Source: an uncultured delta proteobacterium
Lineage (GTDB): Bacteria > Myxococcota > Myxococcia > Myxococcales > Anaeromyxobacteraceae
Length of the DNA: 64,000 bases
NCBI GenBank assembly: GCA_963802065.1
Contig: CAWDHF010000004.1
Span: forward strand, 31,204-95,203
Direction: 5' to 3'
A model generated the notes under the pieces. It saw only the letters and a list, made by a program, of their open reading frames with translations. It ran no database searches and was not told where the DNA came from. Below are positions 58,030 to 64,000 of this stretch, piece by piece. Position 1 is the first letter of the stretch. Each line of letters starts with the position of its first letter. The translations under genes and the position numbers were made by a program.

Positions 58030-58692
58030 ATGGGACGACGAGCGGGCTCAAGGAACCTGGACTACGACCGGACAAGGTTCGAGATCGTCACGAAGGTGAC
58101 GGATCGGATATTATCGTCCACCAAGACCAATCTGAGTTTCCGGGAACTCGCGCACCTCGCCCAGGTCGCCCCCTCGACCCTTCGCCACTACTTCCCCGAC
58201 CGGGAGGCCGTCCTGCTCGGGGTCCTGGAACGCCTGCACGAGCTCGGGCACAGGCACGTCGCGGAGGGCGCGACCGCCGAGCACGGTGCGGCTCCCGAAT
58301 CGCTCCGATGGTTCCTTGGTTCCCTGGTGGAAGGATGGAGCCGCGGGGTGGGGAGGGCCCACGAGCTCGGGCTCACGGAGGGAATCGCCGACGCGGCGAT
58401 CGGACCGGCCTACCTGCGCTCTCTCCTCGAGCCCACCCTCCACTCTGCCGAGGCCCGCATCGCCCTGCACATGGCGCGCGGCGAGATCGGGCCCTGCGAC
58501 GTGCGCGTCGCCGCCGTGGAGCTGGTCGCGCCGGTGGTCCTGGTCCTGCTGCACCAGCGCGCGCTCGGGGGAGGGACGGTCCGGCACCTCGAAGTGCAAT
58601 CCTTCCTCGACGAGCACGTGGCTCGCTTCCTGCGCGCCTTCCAGCCGCCTGGGCGGCGCTCTCTCACGCCCAGTCGCGAGGAACGCGGATGA
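58030..58692 (+). CDS. TetR family transcriptional regulator
   Basis: HTH FRELAHLAQVAPSTLRHYFPDREAV. Start placed at ATG 58030. The listed ORF start 57937 lies in the AT-rich promoter patch. Confidence 0.8.
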   Translation: MGRRAGSRNLDYDRTRFEIVTKVTDRILSSTKTNLSFRELAHLAQVAPSTLRHYFPDREAVLLGVLERLHELGHRHVAEGATAEHGAAPESLRWFLGSLVEGWSRGVGRAHELGLTEGIADAAIGPAYLRSLLEPTLHSAEARIALHMARGEIGPCDVRVAAVELVAPVVLVLLHQRALGGGTVRHLEVQSFLDEHVARFLRAFQPPGRRSLTPSREERG

Positions 58693-59551
58693 CCTGGAGG
58701 AGCCTATCCTCCTCGCTTCCCGCCTCGGGATGGTGGTCGTAGCGCCACTGCACCCGGGGAGGAAGCGACATGAGGATCGACTCGGTGCGCCCGCCCGTCT
58801 CCAGCCCGAAGACGGTGCCCCGGTCGTGGAGGAGGTTGAACTCCACGTAGCGGCCGCGGCGGATCTCCTGCCAGTTCCGCTCCCGCTCTCCCCAGGCCAT
58901 CCCCTCGCGCCGCGCCACGATGGGGAGGTAGGCTCGGGAGAAGCTGCGCCCCACGTCCTCCACGAAGGCCAGCTCGCTCCACGGATCGCCTCCCAGGTCC
59001 TCGAAGAAGACACCGCCCACGCCGCGGTGCTCGCCGCGGTGGGGGAGGAAGAAGTAGGCGTCGCAGGTCCTCTTGAATCCGGGGTAGCTGCCGGGCCGGT
59101 GGCGCTCGCAGGCGAGGCGGAGCTCCCGGTGGAAGTGGGAGGCGTCCTCCTCGAACAGGTAGTAGGGGGTCAGGTCGGCTCCGCCGCCGAACCAGGCCTT
59201 CGACCCCCGCGCCAGGAGTCGGATGTTGGCGTGGGTGGTCGGCACCCACGGGCTGCGCGGGTGGATGACGAGGGAGAGCCCCACGGCGGCGAACTCGTCC
59301 CCATCGCCGGGAAGGCGGGCGGCCATGCGGGGCGGCACCGCGCCCTGTACCCGGGAGACGTTGACCCCGGCCTTCTCGAAGCGGCTCCCCTCGGCGAGGA
59401 CGCGGGTCACGCCGCCGCCCCCGCCGGGACGCTGCCAGGCGTCCCGGGCGAAGCGCCCGCCTCCGTCGGCCTCCTCGAGCGCGGCGACGATCGCGTCCTG
59501 CAGGGCCCGGACGACGGCCTCCATCCCATCCACCAGGCGTGCGTGTTCCAC
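58664..59551 (-). CDS. hemF: oxygen-dependent coproporphyrinogen III oxidase
   Basis: WQRPGGGGGVTRVL...GVNVSRV...HPRSPWVPTTHANIR...GGGADLTPYY...RGVGGVFFEDL...RRGRYVEFNLLHDRGTVFGLETGGRTESILMSLPP is collinear with E. coli HemF. Alternative start ATG 59524. Confidence 0.92.
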   Translation of the reverse strand: MEHARLVDGMEAVVRALQDAIVAALEEADGGGRFARDAWQRPGGGGGVTRVLAEGSRFEKAGVNVSRVQGAVPPRMAARLPGDGDEFAAVGLSLVIHPRSPWVPTTHANIRLLARGSKAWFGGGADLTPYYLFEEDASHFHRELRLACERHRPGSYPGFKRTCDAYFFLPHRGEHRGVGGVFFEDLGGDPWSELAFVEDVGRSFSRAYLPIVARREGMAWGERERNWQEIRRGRYVEFNLLHDRGTVFGLETGGRTESILMSLPPRVQWRYDHHPEAGSEEDRLLQVIRVPRDWA

Positions 59552-59566: not shown

Positions 59567-60418
59567 TCAGGCGAAGACGATCGTCTTGTTGCCGTGGACC
59601 AGGATGCGGTCCTCGCAGTGCCAGCGCACCGCGCGGAAGAGGACGCGCCGTTCCAGATCGCGCCCCAGGGCCCGCAGGTCCTCCACCGAGTCCCGGTGGC
59701 TCACGCGGGCGACGTCCTGGTCGATGATGGGGCCGCCGTCTAGCTCGGCGGTGACGTAGTGCGCCGTGGCGCCCACGATCTTCACGCCTCGCTCGTAGGC
59801 CTGCCGGTACGGATCCGCGCCTGCGAACGCGGGCAGGAAGGAGTGGTGGATGTTGATGATCCGCCCGGGGAAGCGATCGACGAAGCCAGGCGAAAGGACC
59901 TGCATGTAGCGGGCGAGCACCAGGAGATCGGCATTCCCCTCCAGGGCCTCCAGCATTCGCGCCTCGGCCCCGGCCCGGGTGCTCCGGTCGTTCGGGACGT
60001 GGAGGAACGGGACCTGGAACGACTCCACGGCGGGGCGCAGGTCGGGGTGGTTGGAGACGACGAGGGGGATCTCGGCCCGCAGGTCGCCGCGTCGCCAGTT
60101 CCAGAGCAGGTCGAGGAGCGCGTGGTCGTGGCGGGAGACCAGCACCGCCACCCTGCGCCGGTCGGCGTGGCTGGCGAGGCGCCACTCCATCGCCATGGGG
60201 CCTCCCACCTCGGCCCCGAAGAGCTCCCCGAGCCGGGGGAGGGGCACGTCGAGCCCCTCGGTCTGGAACTCGAGCCGCATGAAGTAGGTACCCGGAGTCT
60301 CCTCCGTGGAGTGCTGGTCCAGGTCCACCACGTTGGCGCCGTGGCGGAAGAGGAAGGTGGAGACCGCAGCCACGATTCCCGGGCGGTCGGCGCATCGGAT
60401 GAGGAGGACGGCGTGCAT
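59567..60418 (-). CDS. purU: formyltetrahydrofolate deformylase
   Basis: ACT-like N-terminus (LLIRCADRPGIVAAVSTFL). INIHHSFLPAF, GATAHYV and PII.Q motifs. ATG 60418 (alternative 60445). Confidence 0.9.
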   Translation of the reverse strand: MHAVLLIRCADRPGIVAAVSTFLFRHGANVVDLDQHSTEETPGTYFMRLEFQTEGLDVPLPRLGELFGAEVGGPMAMEWRLASHADRRRVAVLVSRHDHALLDLLWNWRRGDLRAEIPLVVSNHPDLRPAVESFQVPFLHVPNDRSTRAGAEARMLEALEGNADLLVLARYMQVLSPGFVDRFPGRIINIHHSFLPAFAGADPYRQAYERGVKIVGATAHYVTAELDGGPIIDQDVARVSHRDSVEDLRALGRDLERRVLFRAVRWHCEDRILVHGNKTIVFA

Positions 60419-60549
60419 GGACCTGCTGTGTACCCCGGGGAGCACCCGTCGGGGAACCGGGTCTCCCGGGGCGGGTTGATTCTCGACAATGGACGTTTAC
60501 GGGCGGCGGAGTAGGGTGGCTCGAGGGTTTTCGCGCGGGGAGGCACGCG

Positions 60550-62235
60550 GTGGGCGACGGGCCGGAGAGCGAGTCGGGAGCGGGTGGGACGCCGGTCGGC
60601 ACGGGGGCGCGCCCTCCGCAGTCGCGCGCGGGCAACGAGCACGCCGCGCTCGACTCCATCCCCTGGCGCGATCGGCTCTCCACGCAGCTCCTCGGCGTGG
60701 CGGCGGCGATCGTGCTCGGGGCGGTGGTGGTTTTCACGCTCGTGGAGATGGCCATCGCCCGCCAGCGGCTGGGAGGCTTGACCCGGTCCACGGTGCTCCT
60801 CAGCGAGACCATCTCGGCCTCGATCCGTCACTCCATGATGCGCGACGACCGGGCCGAGGCCTACGCCATCATCGACAACATCGGACGGCAGCCGCAGATC
60901 GCCCACGTCCGGCTCTTCAACAAGGAGGGGCGAATCACCTTCTCCACCGTCCCCGGCGAGCGGGGAAAGCTTGTGGACAAGCGGGCCGAGGGCTGCCGCG
61001 CCTGCCACGAGGAGAACGAGAGCCTGATCGTCCCGGTGGACGCGCTCCGGGCCAGGACCTACGAGGGACGCCACGGGCGCGTGCTCTCGATGGTGACCCC
61101 GTTCCGGTCGGGGGCGGACTGCACGACCAGCTCCTGCCACGTCCACCCGCGGGAGCGGGCGGTCGTCGGGGTACTCGACGTCGGCGTCTCGCTCGAGCAG
61201 GTGGACCGGGACCTCTCCGCGTTCCGACGGGTCAGCTTCCTCGTCACGGCGCTCCTCGCCCTGATGCTGGCGAGCATCCTCTGGTACATGGTCAAGACCC
61301 GCGTCGTGCGCCCCGTCGAGGCGCTGGTCCAGGGCACGCGCCGGGTGGCCCACGACGAGCTCGACACCGAGATCCACGTCGACGCCCGAGGGGAGCTGGG
61401 GCTCCTGGCCGCGTCCTTCAACGAGATGATCCGCTCGCTGCGGAGGGTGGAGGGCGAGTTCCAGGCGCTCAACGCGCAGCTGGAGACGAAGGTCCAGGAG
61501 CGAACCGGCGAGCTCCGCGCCGCCCAGGACACGCTGGTTCGCACCGAGAAGCTCTCCTCGCTGGGAAAGCTCTCTGCCTCCATCGCGCACGAGATCAACA
61601 ACCCGCTGGCCGGCATCCTGACCTTCGCGAAGCTCATGATCCGCACCATCGAGCACGGGCCGGTCGGGGAGGCGGAGCGGAGGACCCTGGTGAAGCAGCT
61701 GGCGCTCGTCCAGCGGGAGACCGAGCGCTGCACGGCCATCGTCCGGAACCTGCTCGACTTCGCCCGCGAGCGTCCGCTCCAGCTCAAGGACGTGGACGTG
61801 AACCACGTCATCGAGGAGGTCTTCTCGCTGGTCTCGAACCAGACGGCCATGCTGGGGGTCGAGGCCTCGAAGGACCTGGCCCCGGTTCCCAAGGTGGAGG
61901 CCGACTTCGGCCAGCTCCGCCAGGCCTTCATCAACATCGTCATCAACGCAATCGAGGCCATGGGGAAGGGGGGGCACCTCCGGGTCTCGACCCGCCCCCT
62001 GCCCGGGCAGCACGCCCTGGAGGTGGTGTTCCAGGACGACGGTCCGGGCATCCCGCCGGAGCTGATGCAGAAGGTCTTCGACCCGTTCTTCACCACCAAG
62101 GAGAAGGGCACCGGGCTGGGGCTCTCGGTGGTCTACGGCATCGTGGAGCGGCACAAGGGGCGCGTGTCCGTGGAGAGCGAACCGGGGAAGGGAACCCGCT
62201 TCACAATCTGGCTCCCCGCGACGCGCGGGTCGTGA
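60550..62235 (+). CDS. sensor histidine kinase with periplasmic c-heme-motif domain, HAMP, HisKA, HATPase
   Basis: Two TM helices flank a ~160-aa loop containing CRACH (60994-61008) and CTTSSCH (61120-61140). HAMP domain. H-box SIAHEINNPL. N/G boxes NIVINAIEA, DDGPGI and GTGLGL. GTG start 60550 is uncertain. Confidence 0.85.
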   Translation: MGDGPESESGAGGTPVGTGARPPQSRAGNEHAALDSIPWRDRLSTQLLGVAAAIVLGAVVVFTLVEMAIARQRLGGLTRSTVLLSETISASIRHSMMRDDRAEAYAIIDNIGRQPQIAHVRLFNKEGRITFSTVPGERGKLVDKRAEGCRACHEENESLIVPVDALRARTYEGRHGRVLSMVTPFRSGADCTTSSCHVHPRERAVVGVLDVGVSLEQVDRDLSAFRRVSFLVTALLALMLASILWYMVKTRVVRPVEALVQGTRRVAHDELDTEIHVDARGELGLLAASFNEMIRSLRRVEGEFQALNAQLETKVQERTGELRAAQDTLVRTEKLSSLGKLSASIAHEINNPLAGILTFAKLMIRTIEHGPVGEAERRTLVKQLALVQRETERCTAIVRNLLDFARERPLQLKDVDVNHVIEEVFSLVSNQTAMLGVEASKDLAPVPKVEADFGQLRQAFINIVINAIEAMGKGGHLRVSTRPLPGQHALEVVFQDDGPGIPPELMQKVFDPFFTTKEKGTGLGLSVVYGIVERHKGRVSVESEPGKGTRFTIWLPATRGS

Positions 62236-62236
62236 C

Positions 62237-62770
62237 GTGGAGGCCATACACCTTTGGTGGATCGGTGAGAAGGATCCCGGCGCCCGGACGCTCGACCACG
62301 TGCGGCTCCACCTGGGGCGCGCCCTGGGCGTGCCCGTGCGCATCTGGGAGGATCCGGCGCGTCCGCCCGACGCCTACGACCCCCGGCGCAAGCAGTGGTC
62401 GACCTCGAGGATCCTGGCCTGGATGGCGACGGCCGGTCCTGCCGGGAAGGTCCTGGCCGTGACCGACCAGGACCTCTTCATCCCCATCCTGACCTTCGTC
62501 TTCGGCGAGGCACAGCTCGGAGGGCGGGCCGCGGTGGTCTCCACCGCGCGGCTGGGGGAACCCGGGCTTCCCGACCCTCGCGTGGCGCTGGAGCGGCTGG
62601 CCAAGGAGAGCGTCCACGAGCTGGGCCACTGCTTCGGCCTGGTCCACTGTGACACCCCGGGTTGCGTGATGGGACGCTCGCCCAGCGCGCGGGACGTGGA
62701 CCGGAAGCGCGCAGATTTCTGCTCGAAGTGCCGAGACCGCGTCAGGCGGCCCGGGGGAGAGACGAGATGA
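62237..62770 (+). CDS. archaemetzincin-like zinc metallopeptidase (family M54)
   Basis: HELGHCFGLVHCDTPGCVMG-x16-CSKC fits the archaemetzincin HEXXHXXGX3CX4CXM...CXXC signature. GTG 62237 lies 1 nt after the kinase stop. Confidence 0.75.
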   Translation: MEAIHLWWIGEKDPGARTLDHVRLHLGRALGVPVRIWEDPARPPDAYDPRRKQWSTSRILAWMATAGPAGKVLAVTDQDLFIPILTFVFGEAQLGGRAAVVSTARLGEPGLPDPRVALERLAKESVHELGHCFGLVHCDTPGCVMGRSPSARDVDRKRADFCSKCRDRVRRPGGETR

Positions 62771-64000
62771 CCGGAGAGAACACCCGCGTGCTGGTGGTCG
62801 ACGACGAGGAGATCGTCCGGGAGTCGCTGGGCGGCTGGCTCCAGGAGGACGGCTTCCAGGTGTCCTCGGCTCCCGAGGGTCGCACCGCCGTGGAGATGAT
62901 GAAGAAGGACCGGTGGAACGTGATGCTCGTGGACCTCAAGATGCCCGGGATGGACGGCCTCCAGGTGCTCGAGGAGGCCCGCAAGCTGCAGCCCGAGGCC
63001 GCCATCATCATGATGACGGCCTACGCCACGGTCGACACCGCGGTCACCGCCATGAAGCTCGGCGCCTTCGACTATCTGGTGAAGCCCTTCGACCCGGAGG
63101 AGCTCTCCCTCCTCATGCAGAAGGTGGTGGCCCAGCAGAGCCTGATCCGGGAGAACGCGGTCCTGCGCAAGGCGCTCAAGAAGGAGCACCGGTTCCGGGA
63201 CCTGGTCTCGAAGAGCGGGGCGATGCAGCGGGTCTTCGAGCTGGCCCAGGTGGCGGCCCGGTCCAACTCCACCATCCTGGTCCTCGGGGAGAGCGGCAGC
63301 GGCAAGGAGGTCCTGGCCCGCACCATCCACGAGGAGAGCCCGCGCGCAGGGGGCCCCTTCGTGGCCATGAGCTGCGCGGCCCTCACCGAGACGCTCCTGG
63401 AGAGCGAGCTCTTCGGTCACGAGAAGGGGTCCTTCACCGGAGCGAACGCGCGCCGGAAGGGAAAGTTCGAGGCGGCGGCCGGGGGAACGCTCTTCCTCGA
63501 CGAGATCGGCGACATCTCCCCGAAGCTCCAGCTCGACCTCCTGCGGGTCCTGGAGGAGCGGAAGTTCCAGCGGGTCGGGGGGAACGAGCCCATCGACGTG
63601 GACGTCCGGATCATCGCCGCCACCAACAAGGATCTCAAGAAGGCGGTGGCCGACGGCTCGTTCCGCGAGGACCTCTTCTACCGGCTGAACGTGATCCCGG
63701 TGACCTTGCCCCCCCTCCGGGAGCGCAAGGAGGACATCCCCCTCCTGGTCGAGCACTTCCTCGATCGGCTCGAGGCGGAGATGAAGAAGCGGGTGAGGGT
63801 CTCCCCCGAGGCCATGGGCGCGCTGCTGGCCCACGACTGGCCCGGCAACGTCCGGGAGCTCCGCAACGTCCTCGAACGGGGTGCGGTCGTTGCCCAGGGA
63901 GACGTCATCAAGCCCTCCGACCTGGGCCTGGCGCCGGCGCCTGCCCGGGCTCCCGGGGCAAATGCACCTGGCGAGCCGGTCTCCCTGGAGGAGGTGGAGA
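62767..64000 (+). CDS. sigma-54-dependent response regulator (NtrC family), 3' end beyond window
   Basis: ATG 62767 overlaps the upstream TGA (ATGA). REC domain (VLVVDDE...DLKMPGMDG...KP). AAA+ domain GESGSGKE, GAFTGA-like GSFTGA, ESELFGHEKG and DWPGNVRELRN. Frame open to nt 64000. Not in the ORF track because there is no stop in the window. Confidence 0.9.
   Translation, partial: MTGENTRVLVVDDEEIVRESLGGWLQEDGFQVSSAPEGRTAVEMMKKDRWNVMLVDLKMPGMDGLQVLEEARKLQPEAAIIMMTAYATVDTAVTAMKLGAFDYLVKPFDPEELSLLMQKVVAQQSLIRENAVLRKALKKEHRFRDLVSKSGAMQRVFELAQVAARSNSTILVLGESGSGKEVLARTIHEESPRAGGPFVAMSCAALTETLLESELFGHEKGSFTGANARRKGKFEAAAGGTLFLDEIGDISPKLQLDLLRVLEERKFQRVGGNEPIDVDVRIIAATNKDLKKAVADGSFREDLFYRLNVIPVTLPPLRERKEDIPLLVEHFLDRLEAEMKKRVRVSPEAMGALLAHDWPGNVRELRNVLERGAVVAQGDVIKPSDLGLAPAPARAPGANAPGEPVSLEEVE

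Follow-up and report, generated by a model that had tools for sequence, protein, structure and literature searches.

To our knowledge, no physiological substrate is known for any archaemetzincin (AMZ; MEROPS M54), from archaea to humans, and the family has no known job in bacteria. Here we describe an AMZ gene that lies between the genes of a sensor histidine kinase (HK) and an NtrC-type sigma-54 response regulator (RR) in a 64,000-nucleotide stretch of DNA (the window) from an uncultured delta proteobacterium of the Anaeromyxobacteraceae (GenBank assembly GCA_963802065.1, contig CAWDHF010000004.1, positions 31,204 to 95,203, forward strand), and that recurs beside such a regulator in several phyla. 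Among the closest described proteins, the archaeal AmzA has a closed cleft and, with its motifs intact, is inactive in vitro, its authors raising the possible need for activating factors; no partner or substrate is known for the archaeal proteins, and the same paper cites a description of human AMZ1 and AMZ2 as aminopeptidases (PMC3427221). The CarG protein of Myxococcus xanthus is a zinc-bound, non-proteolytic protein of the AMZ fold and the obligate partner of the transcription factor CarD, its only known partner (PMC8156234, PMC6061681). Full-text literature searches found no published description of an archaemetzincin associated with a sigma-54 two-component system, and what appears to be new relative to this literature is a system of that class with a conserved third protein drawn from an orphan protease family.

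That the middle gene encodes an archaemetzincin, as the initial annotation had proposed from its motif, is supported by matches above the curated cut-offs of two hidden Markov models (HMMs), at 158.1 bits for NCBIfam NF033823 (cut-off 145) and 81.9 bits for Pfam PF07998 (cut-off 24.4). By these models and by sequence match it belongs to the same family as archaeal AmzA (M. kandleri 2X7M; A. fulgidus 3ZVS and 4A3W), AMZ-tk and human AMZ1 and AMZ2, its best solved relative being M. kandleri AmzA (E 2e-29; the solved archaeal structures span E 2e-29 to 3e-23). With AmzA it shares the pattern HExxHxxGxxHCx4CxM...CxxC, which comprises a catalytic zinc site and a Cys4 structural zinc site (PMC3427221). 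In letters the signature reads HELGHCFGLVHCDTPGCVM-x16-CSKC, with the Cys4 site and Met-turn at C138, C143, M145, C162 and C165. The signature seen at first by eye is thus present, its spacer needing correction: between the Met and the next Cys there are 16 residues, equivalent to 15 after the Gly at which the motif had then been cut, and this is one fewer than the archaeal x17 consensus and the same as the x16 of CarG (PMC3427221, PMC8156234). H127, E128, H131, G134 and H137 are kept in the ten cassette-linked orthologues of our alignment A1. A wider comparison was made by scanning one genome per prokaryote species (GTDB) with the AMZ alignment and ranking the matches by likeness to the window AMZ; across the 80 nearest loci so obtained, the HExxHxx[G/S/N]xxH core, catalytic Glu included, is present without exception, and the full Cys4 pattern is matched in 73. 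The protein has no signal peptide and no membrane or other hydrophobic segment, and should therefore be cytoplasmic. By every sequence criterion it is a true archaemetzincin, and it is predicted to be a catalytically competent zinc peptidase, which differs from archaeal AmzA in being bacterial, in its x16 spacer and in being embedded in a two-component operon.

All three genes of the trio lie on the same strand at the positions given by the initial annotation, and the one-nucleotide gap and the ATGA overlap that it described are there in the sequence (Table 1). The regulator is complete on the contig at 462 aa, its final 51 codons, which include the HTH_8 domain, falling past the window end. 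The local DNA is very GC-rich and carries many spurious overlapping open reading frames (ORFs), among which the three real frames all show a coding pattern (third-position GC of 0.95, 0.88 and 0.95 for kinase, AMZ and regulator; 0.73/0.54/0.88 at the three positions of the AMZ frame). None of the 19 loci retrieved from further genomes of the genus and family departs from this gene order or lacks the tight junctions; their kinase orthologues are 54-91% and their regulator orthologues 71-98% identical to those of the window. The kinase-AMZ junction, TGAcGTG, is identical in 13/13 genus-level relatives, and the corresponding gap measures 0-101 nt, mostly 40 nt or less, in six loci of other genera. 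At the other junction the ATGA overlap recurs in 12 of the 13 genus-level relatives, with TGATG in the remaining one, and other genera range from a 4-nt overlap up to a gap of a few bases. From this layout the AMZ gene is presumably co-transcribed with the kinase and the activator and, in this genus, translationally coupled to them. Two metagenome-assembled genomes (MAGs) have the kinase orthologue split over different frames, by a frameshift or an assembly error (L006 in G012; L013 in G003). Cultured carriers of the cassette are Anaeromyxobacter sp. PSR-1, A. terrae SG22 and A. oryzae Red232.

When the 80 nearest loci are scored for kinase and regulator domains, the arrangement is found well beyond the family. 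A sigma-54 regulator adjoins the AMZ gene in 75 of them. The HK-AMZ-RR order of the window is seen in 55, from Anaeromyxobacteraceae and Acidobacteriota (e.g., Vicinamibacteria and Thermoanaerobaculia), and RR-AMZ in 20, 17 of these with an upstream kinase (HK-RR-AMZ), from Desulfobacterota-type genomes, Geobacteraceae, Planctomycetota, Eisenbacteria, Ignavibacteria and other Acidobacteriota. One locus ends at a contig edge after HK-AMZ, and four are without two-component genes (an archaeon, a Bacillota MAG, an Aminicenantes MAG and the "Deltaproteobacteria" MAG L088). On the AMZ tree HK-AMZ-RR forms a single clade with 100% SH-aLRT support and the gene order switches only twice; the archaeal, Bacillota and Aminicenantes proteins fall nearest the root, and L088 lies inside the RR-AMZ group. 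The synteny for which the initial annotation had called therefore recurs across several phyla and in two gene orders. Its notion of the AMZ as a fixed third partner holds in so far as the trio recurs, and is refined in two respects: the regulator, not the kinase, is the constant neighbor, and the cassette AMZs are one clade only.

Genomes with more than one AMZ gene show the same association, the further copies being regulator-linked in 16 of 20 cases. In G372 every one of three cassettes has an AMZ of its own; two of these cassettes are complete, and for the third the regulator is visible within a short flank. Both gene orders occur in G431, in one cassette each. G253 carries two pairs of AMZ and regulator for which no kinase was detected, and several genomes have one stand-alone and one cassette AMZ. 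Such a one-to-one allotment is what would be expected of a specific partner, as with cognate kinases and regulators, and not of a general peptidase. These observations bear on the simplest objection, namely that the AMZ is a housekeeping cytoplasmic peptidase with no functional link to its neighbors, carried along with a mobile kinase-regulator pair. Stand-alone AMZs are indeed common in the same phyla, and the cassette has evidently moved between phyla: a cassette-type AMZ is present in 15/17 sampled Anaeromyxobacteraceae, with one weak outlier among 184 other sampled Myxococcota genomes, and the Anaeromyxobacteraceae clade groups with Acidobacteriota on the tree, which together with this confinement suggests that the cassette was exchanged as a whole with Acidobacteriota. 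Mere hitch-hiking nonetheless strikes us as very improbable, since the AMZ-regulator link has outlived a rearrangement of gene order and holds in several phyla among deeply diverged AMZs that share as little as about 40% identity, since each cassette has a separate AMZ, often beside a stand-alone copy, and since the junctions are tight or overlapping.

The comparison with CarG is instructive because this genome holds two further AMZ-like genes, both of which have lost the catalytic Glu (HAVGH and HFIGH), so that the window AMZ is the only one of the three to keep it. The HFIGH copy (contig C8:355848-359336; L003, L026) is also without the final CxxC and directly follows a CarD-type gene, recognized by PF21095 and PF02559 matches and a Lys/Ala/Pro-rich tail; by position it is probably the organism's CarG. 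The HAVGH copy (contig C6:274159-277659; L002, L025) scores 182 bits on the CarG model (cut-off 250) and lies a few kb from gyrB/recF. CarG resembles the window AMZ in being an AMZ-fold zinc protein that acts with an adjacently encoded transcription regulator, in coming from the same phylum and in having the same x16 spacer. It differs in carrying Gln for the catalytic Glu and lacking protease activity, and its partner CarD is an HMGA-type protein that binds RNA polymerase, not a sigma-54 activator (PMC8156234, PMC6061681). The window AMZ retains the Glu, has the kinase and the sigma-54 regulator as neighbors in place of carD, and reaches just 87 bits on the CarG equivalog model NF033824 (cut-off 250), outside that family.

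CarG is nevertheless the sole functionally studied bacterial member of the family, and it invites the proposal that the cassette AMZ is a non-proteolytic adaptor, which would bind the activator or RNA polymerase/sigma-54 stoichiometrically and tune assembly or activity, its active site being incidental or a binding groove. Such a protein would resemble the anti-activators and co-activators that are encoded beside other enhancer-binding proteins. That CarG acts in this way with CarD and without protease activity (PMC8156234, PMC6061681), that a CarD-type gene followed by an AMZ-like gene is found in this very genome, that archaeal AmzA with intact motifs is inactive in vitro (PMC3427221), and that tight translational coupling would suit a stoichiometric partner all speak for it. 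What makes it unlikely in our judgment is the distance of the window AMZ from the CarG model and that the catalytic Glu and the three His persist in 80/80 cassette-type and related AMZs while the CarG-type paralogues of the same genome have lost the Glu, a contrast of the kind that purifying selection on catalysis would produce.

The kinase consists of a first transmembrane helix, a periplasmic Cache/PDC sensor, a second transmembrane helix, and HAMP (residues 251-298), HisKA (338-407) and HATPase_c (454-558) domains, the two helices appearing in hydropathy plots at about residues 44-70 and 224-250 and bracketing the sensor. The two Cys/His motifs that were noticed at the outset in the periplasmic loop, a CxxCH (CRACH) and a CxxxxCH (CTTSSCH), do both lie between these helices. 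Kinase orthologues taken from tblastn alignments retain both motifs in 20/20 family members, down to 54% kinase identity. In a broader set of 54 kinases, selected for having both motifs by a filter of 38-46 residues on their spacing, the pair lies 41-43 residues apart in both gene orders, the phyla represented being Myxococcota, Acidobacteriota, Desulfobacterota-type MAGs, Planctomycetota and Eisenbacteria. A 41-sequence, multi-phylum alignment of the sensor (A2) has as its invariant columns M36, R61, G67, S72, C89, C92, H93, C131, C136, H137 and G147, within which C89/C92/H93 form the CxxCH and C131/C136/H137 the Cx4CH. Six kinases of HK-RR-AMZ loci are without a homologous sensor domain.

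Pfam gives weak, sub-threshold matches only for the sensor domain (CHASE8 and sCache_3_2), and its fold is instead apparent from an AlphaFold2 model built on the 41-sequence alignment, which is a confident single Cache/PDC domain (mean pLDDT 84.9, pTM 0.78) with best Foldseek matches to the extracellular domains of WalK, KinD and CitA and to GSU0935 (3B42), at E 2.5e-6 to 1e-4. The last of these is of special relevance, as the GSU0935 and GSU0582 chemoreceptor sensors of Geobacter sulfurreducens likewise have a periplasmic PAS/Cache-like fold carrying CxxCH (PDB 3B42; Foldseek E 2.5e-5, 19-21% identity, in a partial alignment of TM 0.36). The window sensor differs from them in having two motifs, the second a Cx4CH, and in belonging to a histidine kinase instead of a chemoreceptor. 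A haem-c PAS/Cache sensor would be expected to show a fold of this kind between two transmembrane helices, a conserved CxxCH and a maturation system in the genome; all are found here, the last as four genes of the Cytochrom_C_asm family for cytochrome c assembly. The proposal that the kinase senses through covalently bound haem is strengthened by the motif conservation, by the GSU0935-like fold and by the assembly genes, and we infer on good grounds, from sequence and model, that the sensor probably carries two c-type haems.

The regulator is of the NtrC class, with Response_reg (8-114), Sigma54_activat (147-312), AAA_lid_14 and, in the full-length protein, HTH_8 (406-447) domains, and with a GSFTGA variant of the GAFTGA loop visible in its translation. 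Together with the HisKA and HATPase_c domains of the kinase, this receiver, sigma-54 AAA+ and helix-turn-helix layout defines an NtrC-type two-component pair, of which AtoS/AtoC and ZraS/ZraR (NtrB/NtrC class) are the nearest described representatives: kinase core and regulator match these best, the REC-AAA+-HTH_8 layout is the same, and a sigma-54 promoter stands beside the regulator gene. The pair nonetheless falls outside every named equivalog (AtoSC, ZraSR, NtrBC), with the best scores of 238 bits for AtoS (cut-off 646) and 484 bits for AtoC (cut-off 714), AtoC and NtrC being the models closest to the regulator. The differences from the known systems are the third conserved gene, for a zinc peptidase, the putative di-haem Cache sensor and a respiratory cytochrome operon as the likely output. 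Sigma-54 itself is encoded in the genome (rpoN, 430 bits against a cut-off of 277).

The search for sigma-54 promoters suggested in the initial annotation turned up a positionally conserved one just downstream of the regulator. A position-weighted search of 47 loci found TGGC-N8-TTGC 38-49 nt before the start of a small ORF in 40 of them, from two phyla, and located TGGCCCACCCCTTGAA as the promoter of this genome. An exact-pattern search for TGGC-N8-TGCW had returned two intragenic chance matches only. Applied as a negative control to the region upstream of the kinase, the position-weighted search produced scattered matches of lower score and no conserved sigma-54 promoter; a ATTCTCGAC word there resembled the upstream repeat described next, and is conserved in no relative, so autoregulation was rejected. 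An inverted repeat, GAGAAT-N16-ATTCTC, lies 184 nt upstream of the promoter, is unique in the 3.9-Mb assembly and is kept within the genus; it is a candidate binding site for the activator. A wider binding consensus for the regulator was sought and rejected: [CT]GAGAA words recur, but as a clear inverted repeat the site is confined to the genus.

Behind the promoter, past the window end, the genes run in the order small 4-Cys ORF, twin-arginine translocation (TAT)-signal 4Fe-4S protein, NrfD-family membrane protein, c7-type three-haem cytochrome and nine-CxxCH cytochrome with a C-terminal helix. In both phyla nearly every HK-AMZ-RR locus has the first three (small ORF, iron-sulfur (FeS) and NrfD genes) behind the cassette. 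The small protein has four invariant Cys in the pattern M-x-C-P-[YH]-x8/9-C...C...C, with an invariant M-x-C-P N-terminus. It gave no Pfam or NCBIfam match and no Foldseek match (best E 1.7) for a modest AlphaFold2 model (pLDDT 74, pTM 0.35); its conserved C-terminal K-G-A coincides with the ribosome-binding site of the next gene and is for that reason not read as a feature of the protein.

Modules of the HmcB/HmcC/NhcA type in sulfate reducers combine a TAT 4Fe-4S protein, an NrfD-type membrane protein and a nine-haem cytochrome. The same three components, judged by domain content, occur here in the putatively regulated operon, to which the small 4-Cys protein and the c7-type cytochrome are extra; the output operon thus looks like an Hmc/Nhc-like electron-transfer module and is the likely target of the cassette. 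An analogy, and only that, is offered by BccR-CbcBA of Geobacter sulfurreducens, in which a sigma-54 response regulator likewise adjoins an inner-membrane cytochrome operon; BccR is needed to induce cbcBA, which is expressed at low redox potential and opens with hypothetical small proteins (10.1101/2021.04.15.440034). Identity with that locus was considered and rejected, as BccR is divergently transcribed, its target is a b/c-type cytochrome pair and not FeS/NrfD, and no peptidase is mentioned (10.1101/2021.04.15.440034).

The neighboring targets vary with gene order, small 4-Cys-FeS-NrfD in HK-AMZ-RR loci and FeS-NrfD-GcvH-like in HK-RR-AMZ loci. A Syntrophobacterales-type locus of the latter order, for example, has FeS and NrfD genes convergent with the cassette and, after these, genes for two proteins of the GCV_H family, of which one is membrane-anchored and the other has a Cys-rich head. 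The short flanks available for such convergent operons (72-346 nt) yielded no convincing sigma-54 promoter. Three Desulfobacterota-type loci (L087, L104 and L106, minus strand) share an ORF whose conserved C-terminus reads GGD-x-IDK-[EK]-[KT]-x-[KE]; it stops some 130-220 nt ahead of the TAT-FeS gene, and the operon evidently begins upstream of the flank that was fetched.

These operons raise the further possibility that the AMZ is a peptidase which matures or processes one of the operon products (candidates being the small 4-Cys protein, the FeS subunit ahead of its TAT export, and the GcvH-like proteins of other lineages), placed in the regulatory operon only so as to be present beforehand. 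An FeS/NrfD redox operon does stand beside the cassette in both HK-AMZ-RR phyla and in at least four HK-RR-AMZ loci, its first gene encodes a Cys-rich protein with the invariant N-terminus already noted, and aminopeptidase activity has been described for human AMZ1 and AMZ2 (as cited in PMC3427221). Yet in the loci examined the AMZ gene belongs to the transcription unit of kinase and regulator and is never found within the operon behind the sigma-54 promoter, the two gene orders have different neighboring target genes but the same adjacency of AMZ and regulator, and FeS or NrfD genes occur within 4 kb in just 5/20 HK-RR-AMZ loci. A maturation role is, on balance, about as unlikely as that of a non-proteolytic adaptor.

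The explanation that we favor is that of a signaling cassette in which the AMZ is a dedicated, active partner of its own activator. The membrane kinase would sense periplasmic redox state or a small ligand through its putative di-haem Cache/PDC sensor and would phosphorylate the NtrC-type activator, which would then bind upstream of, and open, the sigma-54 promoter that drives the operon for the small 4-Cys protein, the FeS protein, the quinone-interacting NrfD-type membrane protein, the three-haem c7 cytochrome and the nine-haem membrane-anchored cytochrome. Apart from its unusual sensor, this chain from kinase to operon follows the usual logic of sigma-54 two-component systems, and it is probably right. 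To it the AMZ would add a cleaving or trimming of the activator, or possibly of the cytoplasmic part of the kinase, that sets or resets the switch; the identity of the substrate is the most conjectural element here, and the cleavage step taken on its own is doubtful. We put the dedicated-partner explanation as a whole at even chances, because of the retained catalytic residues, the position in a signaling operon with the regulator as constant neighbor (adjoining in both orders) while sensors and nearby target genes vary, the allotment of one AMZ to each cassette, and the precedents of CarG and AmzA. A stronger form, in which cassette AMZs in general are dedicated proteases of their own sigma-54 activators and make up a protease-gated three-component switch, cutting, for instance, at the linker between receiver and AAA+ domains or at the N-terminus, is speculative and somewhat improbable. 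Were it true, activation or shut-off of the respiratory operon would be irreversible until new protein was made, the M54 family would have its first physiological substrate, and CarG would seem to descend from such a partner after loss of catalysis.

A number of observations weigh against this explanation or parts of it. The present evidence would fit cleavage and mere binding alike, and the adjacency of AMZ and regulator could reflect operon history alone. At the sensor, a haem bound at Cx4CH would be out of the ordinary, and the model is least confident in the two motif loops (block-mean pLDDT about 57-71), though this is expected where a cofactor pocket goes unmodelled. At the promoter, the -12 element of this genome is TTGA, not TTGC, and the inverted repeat is clear within the genus only. 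A less biased sample, of 151 genomes from each of two other phyla searched with the family HMM, also tells against any general rule: AMZs above the cut-off were found in 43/151 and 31/151 genomes, and among the 60 best matches 24 adjoin a sigma-54 regulator and 36 do not. The notion that all bacterial AMZs are regulator-linked was rejected on this HMM-ranked sample. The 36 imply at least one other role for the family. Since the bacterial AMZs that score highest and are most like the archaeal ones are stand-alone genes, the cassette type represents only a single clade within the bacterial family. The stand-alone proteins form a subfamily (L108-L167) with the motif HELGH[LT][YF]GLxH and the top HMM scores; it is common in the two sampled phyla, often with a cassette copy in the same genome.

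Table 1. Positions of the cassette genes, their junctions and motifs, and the downstream promoter and first target gene. Positions are those of the window unless prefixed with a contig (C4) or locus (L024) name.
Feature	Position	Strand	Basis and details
Sensor histidine kinase gene, 561 aa	60550..62235	+	ORF; GTG 60550, TGA 62233-62235
Periplasmic sensor domain, about residues 71-222, single Cache/PDC fold	60760..61215	+	AlphaFold2 and Foldseek
CxxCH motif CRACH, residues 149-153, candidate haem-c site 1	60994..61008	+	Sequence, conservation
CxxxxCH motif CTTSSCH, residues 191-197, candidate haem-c site 2	61120..61140	+	Sequence, conservation
Kinase stop/AMZ start junction TGAcGTG	62233..62239	+	Sequence; single spacer base C at 62236
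Archaemetzincin (MEROPS M54) gene, 177 aa (177 codons)	62237..62770	+	GTG 62237, TGA 62768-62770; HMMs
AMZ active-site/zinc signature H127-E128-xx-H131-xx-G134-xx-H137-C138-x4-C143-x-M145-x16-C162-xx-C165	62615..62731	+	Alignment A1
ATGA overlap of AMZ stop with regulator ATG (62767)	62767..62770	+	Sequence
NtrC-type sigma-54 response regulator gene, window part	62767..64000	+	ORF and Pfam; exits window end
Sigma-54 promoter of this genome	C4:95588-95603 (window-equivalent 64385-64400)		44 nt before small-ORF ATG, about 230 nt past regulator stop
Small 4-Cys protein gene, 74 codons	C4:95632-95856 (L024 4633-4857)		First gene behind conserved sigma-54 promoter; predicted cytoplasmic

The value of the cassette lies in the context that it gives to an orphan protease family, whose function can now be tested: an AMZ clade with intact catalytic residues, tied one per cassette to a defined signaling pair and promoter, leaves a short list of candidate substrates. 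It may also represent a new regulatory layer, proteolytic or accessory, in sigma-54 two-component signaling, and it points to the control of a quinone-linked multihaem cytochrome module in metal-reducing and other anaerobic soil bacteria (Anaeromyxobacter, Acidobacteriota, Desulfobacterota).

Several neighboring genes deserve mention in their own right. Downstream of the cassette, at a distance of about 6.5 kb, there is another two-component pair (C4:101879-104478; L024 10880-13479), its kinase having a Cache-like periplasmic domain with CSECH, HAMP and HisKA_3 and its regulator being of the LuxR type. Homologues of this pair (56-59% and 70-74% identity) stand just upstream of the cassette in four Acidobacteriota loci (L062, L064, L078 and L081, positions 1-1560), and the two signaling systems may travel together. 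Between the cytochrome operon and the second kinase is a gene for a BlaR1/M56-M48-type membrane metallopeptidase (HELAH; L024 9421-10413), for which no BlaI-type partner was identified, the ORF just upstream having no Pfam match. Upstream of the cassette kinase are haem-related flanks, a coproporphyrinogen-oxidase-like and a purU-like ORF named by eye (window 58664-59551 and 59567-60445, both on the minus strand); purU is divergent from the kinase across Anaeromyxobacteraceae and not in Acidobacteriota. The downstream flank (L024 13522-16545) holds a B12/radical-SAM-like ORF and a glutamyl-tRNA-reductase-like (hemA) ORF.

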